From positions 1-64,000 of the forward strand of contig MQRK01214350.1 in the NCBI GenBank assembly GCA_001938485.1: DNA of 64,000 nt. The letters are read 5' to 3'. Positions 60,063-62,990 of this stretch are shown here, in pieces. The translations under genes were made by a program, and so were the position numbers. Position 1 is the stretch's first letter; every line of letters begins with the position of its first letter. The DNA is from Girardia tigrina (Eukaryota). The notes beneath the pieces are model-generated. The model did not search any database and was not told where the DNA came from. It saw only the letters and a list, made by a program, of their open reading frames with translations.

Positions 60063-60790
60063 TTAGTTGCTTATTATTATTATTGAAATCTGCATTTTTA
60101 TTACATTGGATAAGTGTTTCAATAAAGGTACCATCGGTTTCTGTAATTTCACAAATTCCTAGTGAGTTTTGTTCACTTGGTAATTCAATTCTTTGTAATC
60201 TTCCTAAACTTGTTCCAGATCTGAAAATGAGATTTTTTGATTCAAAGATTGCTATTCTAATTGGAATTTTATTTTCTTTTATTTTTATTACACAAGAAGC
60301 TATTTCAAAATTTAAATGAATGTTTTGAAAGGATGGTAAAAAAAGAAAATCTTTATTGCTATGCATTGTTGTGTCTGCCAAGACTACAACTTCACATTTT
60401 GGAGGAACAGTTAAATCTGTTGCTGTATGAACTTTATTTTCCTCTGGAATACGCATATTCTTATTTTTCTTAATTAATTTATTTCTCTGTAGGTCGATAA
60501 CATAATCTTTTATTTTTTTCAGGAAGTCTATCCCTAGAAGACATTCATTTATTCCATGTTTAATAACACGAAATTCATTATTTATAATTTGATTATCTAA
60601 TTTAACTGATAATGTTATTAACCCTAGTATATTAATTGGATAAGAAGACAATGTGGATAGACAAAAATTATCGGGTTTTATCTCTTTTGATTTTCGGTTA
60701 AATAATTTATTTTTATTAAGGAGGCTGCCGCTCCAGTATCAATTAAAGCAATAATTTTTTGTTTATTAACTTATACTTCTACTGTGGGTC
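60019..60790 (-). pseudogene. Aspartic protease and PR-RT linker
   Basis: RPTVEV*VNKQKIIALIDTGAAASL (DTG near 60733-60741), then CLLGIDFL in ORF 60019-60651. Confidence 0.9.
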
Positions 60791-62156
60791 TACCAAAGGT
60801 ACCTTTACCGCAAGAATGTATAGGTTTGTATCTCATAAATGTAAATGACCCACCTGGTTGAGTAGTCTGACACTCATAAGTTCTTTGCTGACCTTTAATT
60901 TCATTTAAAATTTGTATCGGTTTCCTATATGGTTCTCTATCTATGGATGTTTGGTGTAGACTTTGCAAGTCTTTTTCTGGTTCATTACTCGTTATCTGTA
61001 CCATTTGTAAATCATCTATTCTAGAATATCCTCTCTTTTTATCGTTAGTTTGTATTTTATTTTCATTTTTATCAATTAAATCTTTTAATAATTTGTCATG
61101 TTCTGTTGTAATTAAGTGTTTTGCTATAAATGGGCAAATACAAGCTATCAACTTCCAAGTTTTTCCAAACACGATTTGTAATTGTCGAAAGGATAATATA
61201 GATGAAAATAGCAGTTTCATAAATGCGAATATGTAATATATTCCTAAAAATCCTGAAAAGAGATTTCCTATAGCTTGAAACTTACCCCAAATACTTTTTA
61301 ATGTATTCATAGCTGCCTTTTTAAAATGGTCAGGTGAAAGTAGTAATTCGATATATGGTTCTAGATTATATCCTCTTTCTGTTGTTTTGTCGACAATAAT
61401 TGAAATAACTTTTTCTCTTTGATATGGCTGTAACATATGTTTTCGAGCTTCCTCGAGACCTTCTCTAGAATATACTCCACTATTTTCTAGGTCTTCAAAC
61501 GCCTGTAACTCCATTTTCTTTTCTAATGTAGGTAGTTCTAATTTTTCTGGTTTAGCTGTTGCCTTCCTATCAGATACATTTATCCAGCTATCAGTTTCTA
61601 GCTGATACATTGGATCAAGTATATTTGTGCATTTGTTAATAATTCTTGGTTGATAATTTTCATCAGTTATAATTCTTGTTATGGGGTGTAAATAGACTTA
61701 TTTTCCTTTATGAACTATCGGTAATTCATTTGTACATTTTTTTGTGATTGCTAATTTAACCTGTACTAACTTACAACTAAATGTTTGTAATACTTCGCCA
61801 ACTACTCTTGCAAACATTCCCAGTTTCTGTGAAAAGAAGTGGTGCTATCAATTCTGGGTTTGTAACTGCCATTGCTATCTTTGTTCTTAAGATTTCTCTT
61901 ATCGTTTTACATTCTTTTTTTAATGTTTCTTGATATAATTTATCAATCTGTATTAAATTAAGATGATACAAAAAGTCAATTTTATTGTTGAAATAACTAT
62001 AAAGTTTTATATCGAATTTATTTACTTTATTTTTTGCATTTTTTATTATAGTAAAACTTAAATACATTCCTTTATAATTTGTAACAAATACTAGACTTCC
62101 ACACTTAGTTGTTTCTTCTTTTTCTATGAATTTCATTGTTTCTTTGTTATCTAGAG

Positions 62157-62194
<38 letters not shown>

Positions 62195-62990
62195 GGAGTA
62201 TCTTTATGTTGTAATACAGATATTTTTCGTTTTTCATCAACTCTTTTTGATGATTGAGCACTTGTAAATATTGACCCTCTGATAATTTTAAATTTTGATG
62301 ATTTCAAAAGACTGAGATGACATCCTTCGTTTTCTACTTTATAAATTATTTTAGACTCTCCAGTGTCACAGCTAGTCTCATCTGCTGTACAAAAGGGATG
62401 AGTTGCCATTTTCTTTGTTGCACTATCGAAGGTTGCTCTAAATTTCCTTAGCTCAACAATATATTCTCTATCAACTACAATTTTATTATGCACTTGCNNN
62501 NNNNNNNNNNNNNNNNNNNNNNNNNNNNNNNNNNNNNNNNNNNNNNNNNNNNNNNNNNNNNNNNNTTTCTTTACTCTTGCACCTATTTTTGCTGATAACT
62601 TTATGTGCTTGTGGACTGTTAGTTCTTTTGTTATAAACGCACTTTCACATTCTGCAGGACTTATAGTTATTGCTTCTGGAGTGAATGTTGGTTTTACAAC
62701 TTGATTTGCCATGCTTCCACATCTCCAAACAAATTCGATATAACTTATTTTACATTCTTTGGCTTCAGTGTAGATAAAATCTTCTTCCTGGTATACGTGA
62801 ATTTCTTTTTCACTTTCTATTTTAATGGTTGTAGGATTAGCTTCAGGGCATTCCTCCACTTCTAATAACGAATATTTCTGACCGAACTTAGGTTTTGAAC
62901 AGTCAAAAGCTGCAATTGCACTAGCTCCTTTTATCATTCCCATCATTAATATTATCGTAGCCATGAATGATATAGACCATAAATGAAACT
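60771..62990 (-). pseudogene. env: Envelope glycoprotein, chuvirus-like (class III fusogen-type)
   Basis: Signal-like segment then AFDCSKP...SLLEVEEC; YFNNKIDFLY...ECKTIREIL; after a frameshift GMFARVVGEVLQTFSCK...CTNELPI...LHPITRII...C..ILDPMY; LENSGVYS; C-terminal hydrophobic helices. The cysteine and motif order matches chuvirus-type glycoproteins as I recall them. Confidence 0.75.

Follow-up and report, generated by a model that had tools for sequence, protein, structure and literature searches.

A Burro-related Ty3/Gypsy family in Girardia tigrina keeps a predicted class III-type envelope in one reading frame with Gag, a Bcl-2-like domain and Pol

A family of Ty3/Gypsy elements in Girardia tigrina keeps Gag, a Bcl-2-like domain, an envelope (env) of predicted class III type and Pol in one reading frame, and its polyprotein likely threads env into the endoplasmic reticulum (ER) and returns Pol to the cytosol. 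We put the probability of this reading at roughly 80%. The stretch analyzed here (the window) covers the opening 64 kb of a contig of 126 kb, from an AT-rich genome of 1.43 Gb. It contains a decayed, compact, Burro-related Ty3/Gypsy copy, 14,721 bp long from LTR to LTR, whose 5' LTR and Gag lie outside the window edge.

Layout of the element and the frame across the env-protease junction

The traits of Ty3/Gypsy elements are present, namely, paired TG...CA LTRs and the order protease (PR), reverse transcriptase (RT), RNase H (RH) and integrase (IN) with the Gypsy-type Pfam set; no family that we take to be typical of BEL/Pao is among the Pfam matches of the window. The order of parts is Gag-CCHC, a spacer, the Bcl-2-like domain, a signal-like helix, the env ectodomain, a transmembrane segment (TM), a linker, PR, a second spacer, RT, RH, IN, ankyrin repeats and accessory frames, including a DEDD exonuclease. 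The features are as follows.

Contig 66807-66304, beyond the window, minus strand: 5' LTR, 504 bp, TG...CA (LTR pairing)
Contig 65.7-64.5 kb, outside the window, minus strand: Gag-like frame and zinc knuckle, the latter at ~64500 (motif, position, weak zf-CCHC match, E 0.044)
63289-64000, minus strand: spacer from the Gag zinc knuckle to the Bcl-2-like domain, with a stop at 63753 (comparison with relatives)
63100-63288, minus strand: Bcl-2-like domain covering the BH1-BH2 region, with W-x4-GGW; shares the frame of env (PF00452 at E 0.018, under the cut-off)
62908-62990, minus strand: internal signal-like helix with small residues at its end, preceding the conserved (F/Y/W)DC ectodomain start (hydropathy, relatives)
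61275-62907, minus strand: predicted class III fusogen ectodomain, Monjiviricetes-type (Pfam; predicted fold of a natural relative)
61188-61274, minus strand: hydrophobic C-terminal stretch of env, predicted to comprise the membrane-proximal region and TM (hydropathy; a relative's model has a long helix at 520-575)
60774-61187, minus strand: env tail and linker to the protease, ~140 aa, predicted cytosolic (frame, linker comparison)
60771-60773, minus strand: premature TAA, private to the window copy (sister contigs)
60681-60770, minus strand: protease N terminus with DTG motif (reading frame, Pfam)
60019-60738, minus strand: C-terminal half of the protease and PR-RT spacer, with frame changes at both ends (Pfam, comparison with relatives)
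57033-60062, minus strand: RT (YMDD), RNase H and integrase in Gypsy order, 1009 aa open (RVT_1 8.7e-32, RT_RNaseH 1.5e-37, Integrase_H2C2 2.9e-19, rve 5e-10)
56146-57027, minus strand: ankyrin-repeat tail past the integrase; a related copy has it in frame with pol (Ank_2, E 2.3e-8)
54071-54460, minus strand: piece of an accessory ORF, DEDD (RNase T-like) exonuclease (PF00929, E 1.9e-6)
52087-52654, minus strand: 3' LTR, 568 bp, TG...CA (LTR pairing)

A GC-rich, PBS-like tract starting with TGG lies 5 bp after the 5' LTR, for which a pattern search returned no matching tRNA; the flanks of the element agree at 3 of 4 bp as a target-site duplication, and no purine run precedes the 3' LTR. Single sequences match the Bcl-2 family weakly (E 0.007-0.06 in four of five copies); a profile built from six copies of the Bcl-2-like domain reached Bcl-xL at E 2.5e-4, and all 60 matches listed were Bcl-2-family chains.

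Does the stop between env and protease separate two genes or interrupt one? On the minus strand, the translation reads ...GRPTVEV, meets TAA at 60773-60771 and continues with VNKQKIIALIDTGAAAS, all in one frame, shared by the C-terminal env frame (61697-60774) and the protease N terminus (60770-60681). The 308-aa frame preceding the TAA matches the Pfam family Monjiviricetes_fusion (PF24664) at E 1.1e-33, and the env piece at 62496-61780 matches it at E 2.3e-10, both above the curated cut-off, while the 30-aa piece past the TAA matches RVP (retroviral protease) at E 0.001. With the junction as query, 44 matches were obtained at the DNA level, of which 30 loci on 24 contigs were fetched. Across 23 scorable contigs the codon is a stop in the window only, a sense codon in 21 and gapped in 1; 17 of these contigs span the junction without gaps at an identity of 94% or more. 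The TAA is thus a copy-specific lesion within a continuous env-PR frame, as the first-pass annotation had proposed. Because the window alone carries it and relatives have single frames, a conserved TAA with a separate pol start fails as an explanation. No programmed stop or frameshift is conserved between env and PR, either in the junction contigs or in the TM-to-protease linkers of the best env loci.

The same annotation had referred to a repaired translation of 62990-61090. Env and protease do share a frame at the junction, but in the window copy that stretch is interrupted by 68 N of scaffold gap at 62498-62565, by a (TA)n run at 62159-62190, and by a frame change and a second stop. Nor does the frame begin at the signal, as the Bcl-2-like domain lies in frame upstream and Gag also belongs to the frame. 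In all, the window copy differs from unbroken relatives by stops at 63753, 61700, 60773 and 57030 and by frame changes near 61807-61838, 60681-60732, 60047-60148 and 57036-57057. Its LTRs are nearly alike (4 differences over 401 aligned non-N columns) despite ~10 coding lesions and a distance of 2-6% from sister copies; assembly collapse or gene conversion could account for such LTRs on a damaged copy.

Relatives in the genome retain the frame that the window copy has lost. A profile search with env gave 104 matches among the 68 scored of 4,312 candidates. In the best 30 PF24664 loci, the TM-to-protease linker is open in 19, with 489-738 nt between the TM motif and the protease, broken in 3 and not scorable in 8; the three breaks (one stop and two frame changes) lie at different sites. 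The stretch from the Bcl-2-like domain to env, examined in 31 loci, is open in 10, broken in 5 and not scorable in 16, with the window counted among the 15 scorable loci. One natural single frame runs for 3,084 aa from Gag to ankyrin (a gap accounts for 974 X), and another, of 4,142 aa (183 X), includes two CCHC motifs, env, RT and IN. The genome holds at least a compact class (frame of ~3,100 aa), a giant class and a third group; in the giant class, one frame has 3,314 aa and a second 1,859 aa, and together they cover ~5,140 codons and include two CCHC motifs. The only longer relative found in the protein database, P0001, carries env-PR-RT-RH in one chain, alongside 8 near-length fragments.

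One alternative is that the frame is continuous, but Env (or Env-Pol) comes mainly from a subgenomic RNA, with the helix serving as an ordinary N-terminal signal peptide and Gag-Bcl-2 translated from genomic RNA. The compact-class copies inspected have methionines in and just ahead of the signal helix, some Oikopleura Tor elements are described as having internal env promoters and others as splicing (PMC4402516), and a single polyprotein would presumably impose a 1:1:1 ratio of Gag, Env and Pol. Against this, 10 of 15 loci are unbroken between the Bcl-2-like domain and env, and the breaks in the others are scattered, a pattern that requires selection on read-through from upstream. Contigs of three sequencing runs, whose type was guessed, contain no leader-to-env joint, which is no evidence either way. 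We regard this alternative as rather unlikely as the main route, and it could coexist with a polyprotein.

Several other features were observed in and around the element. The DEDD exonuclease frame at 54071-54460 (minus strand) has a counterpart in rotifer LTR elements (PMC5408684) and is absent from the Burro domains listed in PMC6431247. Between the ankyrin repeats and the 3' LTR lie accessory frames of 168-256 aa (52785-53498, 53563-54090, 54461-55231, 55204-55710 and 55703-56320, minus strand), none with a Pfam match under E 0.1; the last has a hydrophobic stretch at its end. Upstream of the 5' LTR, a 133-aa frame at contig 68339-68737 (L031:4339-4737, minus strand) looks by eye like a Gag N terminus or an Arc-like protein, with no Pfam match. 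A second, unrelated Gypsy-like element occupies 24610-27970 (plus strand), with a CCHC-bearing gag, a DSG protease, an RT with YIDD and an integrase; its RT is only distantly related to those of the env-bearing group. The frame at 7961-8485 (minus strand) has a terminal RRM-like stretch, RIFVG...YGQIKYANII, and is possibly a host gene exon; we take this stretch to resemble Boule/DAZ. From their motifs, 164-1069 (plus strand), 15692-16171 (minus strand) and 41514-42601 (minus strand) are presumably Penelope-like RT and GIY-YIG fragments and a Tc1/mariner-like transposase fragment.

Fold and history of the envelope

The fold of env was predicted with AlphaFold2 for a natural relative that is ~50-61% identical to the window pieces, using a 21-row alignment. 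The model has a pLDDT of 56.8, with most of residues 27-300 at 70-90 and the C-terminal half below 50, and its structure matches have TM-scores of 0.2-0.5. Every match listed in a Foldseek search of the PDB was herpesvirus gB, the best (HCMV/EBV gB) at E 2e-11. VIA-align placed gB, rabies G and the Bourbon, Chandipura and Thogoto glycoproteins at ranks 1-11, led by HSV-1 gB (Z 8.0, rmsd 10.1, 354 residues aligned), and the part aligned with class III domains is the best-modeled region, residues 27-300. In the ESM Atlas, PF24664 clusters of negative-strand RNA viruses came first (0.95), followed by rhabdovirus G and herpesvirus gB, at a recognition level under the threshold of the tool. Env keeps 12-15 cysteines. 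A PDB search with the env sequence profile gave no match, a sequence search of the protein database reached no named viral G, and none of 7 pattern matches in viral contigs was confirmed. Together, the PF24664 match and the relative's model identify env as a homologue of class III fusogens with a predicted fold, and the viral fusogen homology claimed in the first-pass annotation is upheld.

Which viruses does this predicted fold most resemble? In a search of viral folds, the best match was Tacheng tick virus 4 G (E 5e-31), and G proteins that we assign to chuviruses or chu-like viruses held ranks 1-3 and 6; here the sorting of viruses as chuviruses or xinmoviruses is our own, made from their names. 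Qin-related and xinmovirus G proteins follow within 4 to 8 orders of E-value, and identity to the viral G proteins in the top ten is 17-22%. The term "chuvirus-like" therefore seems fair for the nearest predicted fold but not for the donor.

Env and pol have long traveled together. Trees of env and of RT, built from 14 elements including P0001, recover the same four groups, with a Spearman correlation of 0.79 over pairs that are non-independent; 6 of 19 elements of the genome were left out of the trees, as their matches were too short. The window element is 31-37% identical to other lineages in env and 47-53% in RT, and the distance is much the same to the giant class of its own genome (31-36% in env and 47-51% in RT). 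The agreement of the two trees and the deep divergence of env indicate this long association with pol. An independent capture by the window lineage is not indicated, given that env co-diverges with RT across four lineages. The stronger proposal is that this single Gypsy lineage recently took up a Chuviridae glycoprotein on its own, in parallel to the Anakin elements of BEL/Pao. It could draw on the top ranks of chuvirus-type G in the fold search, and in the published POL tree of Chary and Hayashi (eLife 2026; PMC13524379) the GAG-ENV-POL elements are not monophyletic, leaving room for several old captures or rearrangements. It is nevertheless highly improbable: identity to viral G is low with other virus groups close behind, env has diverged deeply between lineages whose RT tree agrees with the env tree, and elements of Schmidtea, Macrostomum and Prostheceraeus are listed with this env type as well (PMC13524379).

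Substitution patterns indicate that env is under purifying selection like pol. The dN/dS ratio of the ectodomain is 0.059-0.138 in 19 of 21 pairs, the other 2 being saturated and many pairs having dS >1, and that of PR-RT is 0.037-0.10 (3 pairs). Env adjoins PR in 25 of 25 scorable loci and the Bcl-2-like domain in 28 of 28 (30 fetched for each, all of one compact subfamily), and these 30 PR and 30 Bcl-2 loci of one compact subfamily include no env-less in-frame derivative family. One copy (L144:1205-2376) is without most of env between the Bcl-2-like domain and the protease linker, and there the frame shifts at the deletion.

Membrane topology, processing and packaging

Hydropathy gives a simple picture in both the compact and the giant classes: one signal-like helix before (F/Y/W)DC, with small residues in between, and one long hydrophobic stretch ~550 residues further on. 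A single C-terminal GES peak was found in 13 of 15 frames, with a weak second peak past the TM in the other 2; in one compact frame with a short deletion, the signal peak is absent at the threshold. Net charge before and after the TM is +5/0 in two giant copies and +3/+2 in one compact copy, so that the positive-inside rule is not clearly followed. By hydropathy alone, then, the profile fits an ectodomain likely threaded into the ER with the protease and Pol returned to the cytosol; with RT and IN in the cytosol, an odd number of crossings would be needed after the ectodomain.

Compact-class ectodomains have 0-1 N-glycosylation sequons, the same as shuffled sequences. Sequon depletion was considered as a sign of ER passage and rejected: none of 11 ectodomain pieces was significant (lowest P 0.06), and 2 of 10 cytosolic controls fell below 0.05. 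No furin-like site was found in env in the three long frames scanned. Could the domain have ceased to be a fusogen and be retained as a membrane tether or spacer for assembly of the polyprotein at the ER? The scarcity of sequons in the compact class and the missing furin-like sites would suit such a role, and placement in frame could preserve a domain that is removable solely by in-frame deletion. Yet the dN/dS of the whole ectodomain equals that of pol, the cysteines are kept, the best-modeled region is the one that aligns with class III domains, and furin sites are described as not always conserved in gB-type env (PMC13524379). We consider this loss of function extremely improbable.

Under the preferred reading, a polyprotein threaded through the ER membrane, maturation may proceed as follows. 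The internal signal helix would open translocation of the ectodomain into the ER lumen, and signal peptidase would cut ahead of (F/Y/W)DC, freeing the ectodomain N terminus. The single TM would halt transfer and leave the protease and Pol in the cytosol, where the element's own protease could release PR-RT-RH-IN from the Env tail. Budding might take place at the ER or another secretory membrane, and a gB-like trimer on the particle could fuse with neighboring cells.

Cleavage at the signal would part Gag from Pol. How might the two then meet in one particle? The signal helix begins ~45 residues past the BH2-like GGW, and Bcl-2 proteins bear a tail anchor roughly at that distance past BH2. A speculative answer, which we hold to be possible although doubtful, is that the env signal doubles as a Bcl-2 tail anchor, keeping Gag-Bcl-2 on the ER membrane, while Pol stays attached to the Env trimer through the cytosolic tail; in that case Env would package Pol and activate the protease, and each round of transposition, beyond cell entry alone, would require it. 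Such packaging, if true, would explain both a constraint on env equal to that on pol and the lack of an env-less in-frame family, an absence that is compatible with it, and would represent a route of retroelement assembly without a lasting Gag-Pol fusion. A literature search, with most subscription journals and bioRxiv supplements outside its coverage, found no paper on the processing or topology of the Burro polyprotein and no case of Gag-Pol separation by signal cleavage.

Comparison with known systems

The proposed topology has a parallel in flavivirus and hepacivirus polyproteins, in which signal helices within the chain send the ectodomains into the ER and bring the enzymes back to the cytosol, and in which the capsid anchor doubles as the next signal. 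The likeness is one of analogy alone, as these are RNA viruses with class II fusogens and share no homology with the element. Non-canonical endogenous retroviruses of nematodes, reportedly described by Sacco and colleagues in 2022 (J Gen Virol), are said to be metaviruses with an RNA-virus glycoprotein ahead of pol in a continuous gag-env-pro-pol frame; they resemble the window element in having the glycoprotein before pol and differ in their nematode hosts. The Anakin elements of mosquitoes (Dezordi et al. 2020, PMC7642597; also covered in Dezordi 2023) carry a chuvirus glycoprotein and belong to BEL/Pao, whereas the pol of the window element is of Gypsy type and its glycoprotein shares only 17-22% identity with viral G in the predicted-fold search. 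Chuvirus-like glycoproteins are also reported beside gypsy pol in arthropods (PMC13524379).

As a discovery, the locus carries little weight, since planarian elements with gag, env and pol in frame and with a gB-type fold are already published; the env-before-pol order, which the first-pass annotation set against the usual separate env after pol, was described for planarian Burro (PMC6431247) and for flatworm, bryozoan and nematode elements (PMC13524379). In Nematoda, Bryozoa and Platyhelminthes, Chary and Hayashi report Gypsy elements of the order GAG-ENV-POL whose env is of gB type, with ectodomains flanked by a signal or second TM, and argue for an ancient origin (PMC13524379). Three traits of this class (gene order, a class III fold predicted for the relative and, by hydropathy, an ectodomain bounded by a signal or TM and a TM) are present in the window element. 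Of their six Schmidtea elements, four (Smed_errantivirus_1-4) span 14.5-14.9 kb, compared to 14.7 kb here, and share the Gypsy pol, the gag-env-pol order and a class III env between a signal or TM and a TM; by eye, the printed Smed env rows have recognizable motifs in common with the window env. The table entries for these elements give no LTR or PBS, whereas the window element shows LTRs and a PBS-like tract, and the available passages of PMC13524379 do not discuss Bcl-2, a polyprotein or its processing, whereas a Bcl-2-like domain lies in frame here.

Another close relative is Burro/GYPSM1, the giant Gypsy elements of planarians. Arkhipova and Yushenova (2019; PMC6431247) described polyproteins of planarian Burro in which env stands between BCL2 and PR, with matches to mononegavirus fusion glycoproteins, and called Burro the first case of an in-frame env between gag and pol. 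Both elements have Gag-CCHC, Bcl-2, env, PR, RT, RH and IN in one polyprotein, with ankyrin repeats. The giant Burro exceeds 30 kb and encodes 4,873-5,140 aa, whereas the window element has 14.7 kb, LTRs of 0.5 kb and a family frame of ~3,100 aa. MATH/TRAF, BIR, ubiquitin-like, midasin-like and dUTPase-like domains gave no Pfam match here, including in the PR-RT spacer, whose Burro counterpart is described as dUTPase-like; some of these were detected in the Burro review by HHpred only (PMC6431247). Burro env was likened there to gypsy Env and its F-type relatives, whereas our fold search points to class III. To this picture the locus adds an LTR-bounded member of 14.7 kb with Bcl-2, ankyrin and DEDD-exonuclease parts, counts over many copies for the single frame and for selection on env, and a model-based assignment of Burro-type env to class III. 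The giant relative BURRO1 is reported to be expressed and piRNA-controlled in a regeneration model (PMC8532177).
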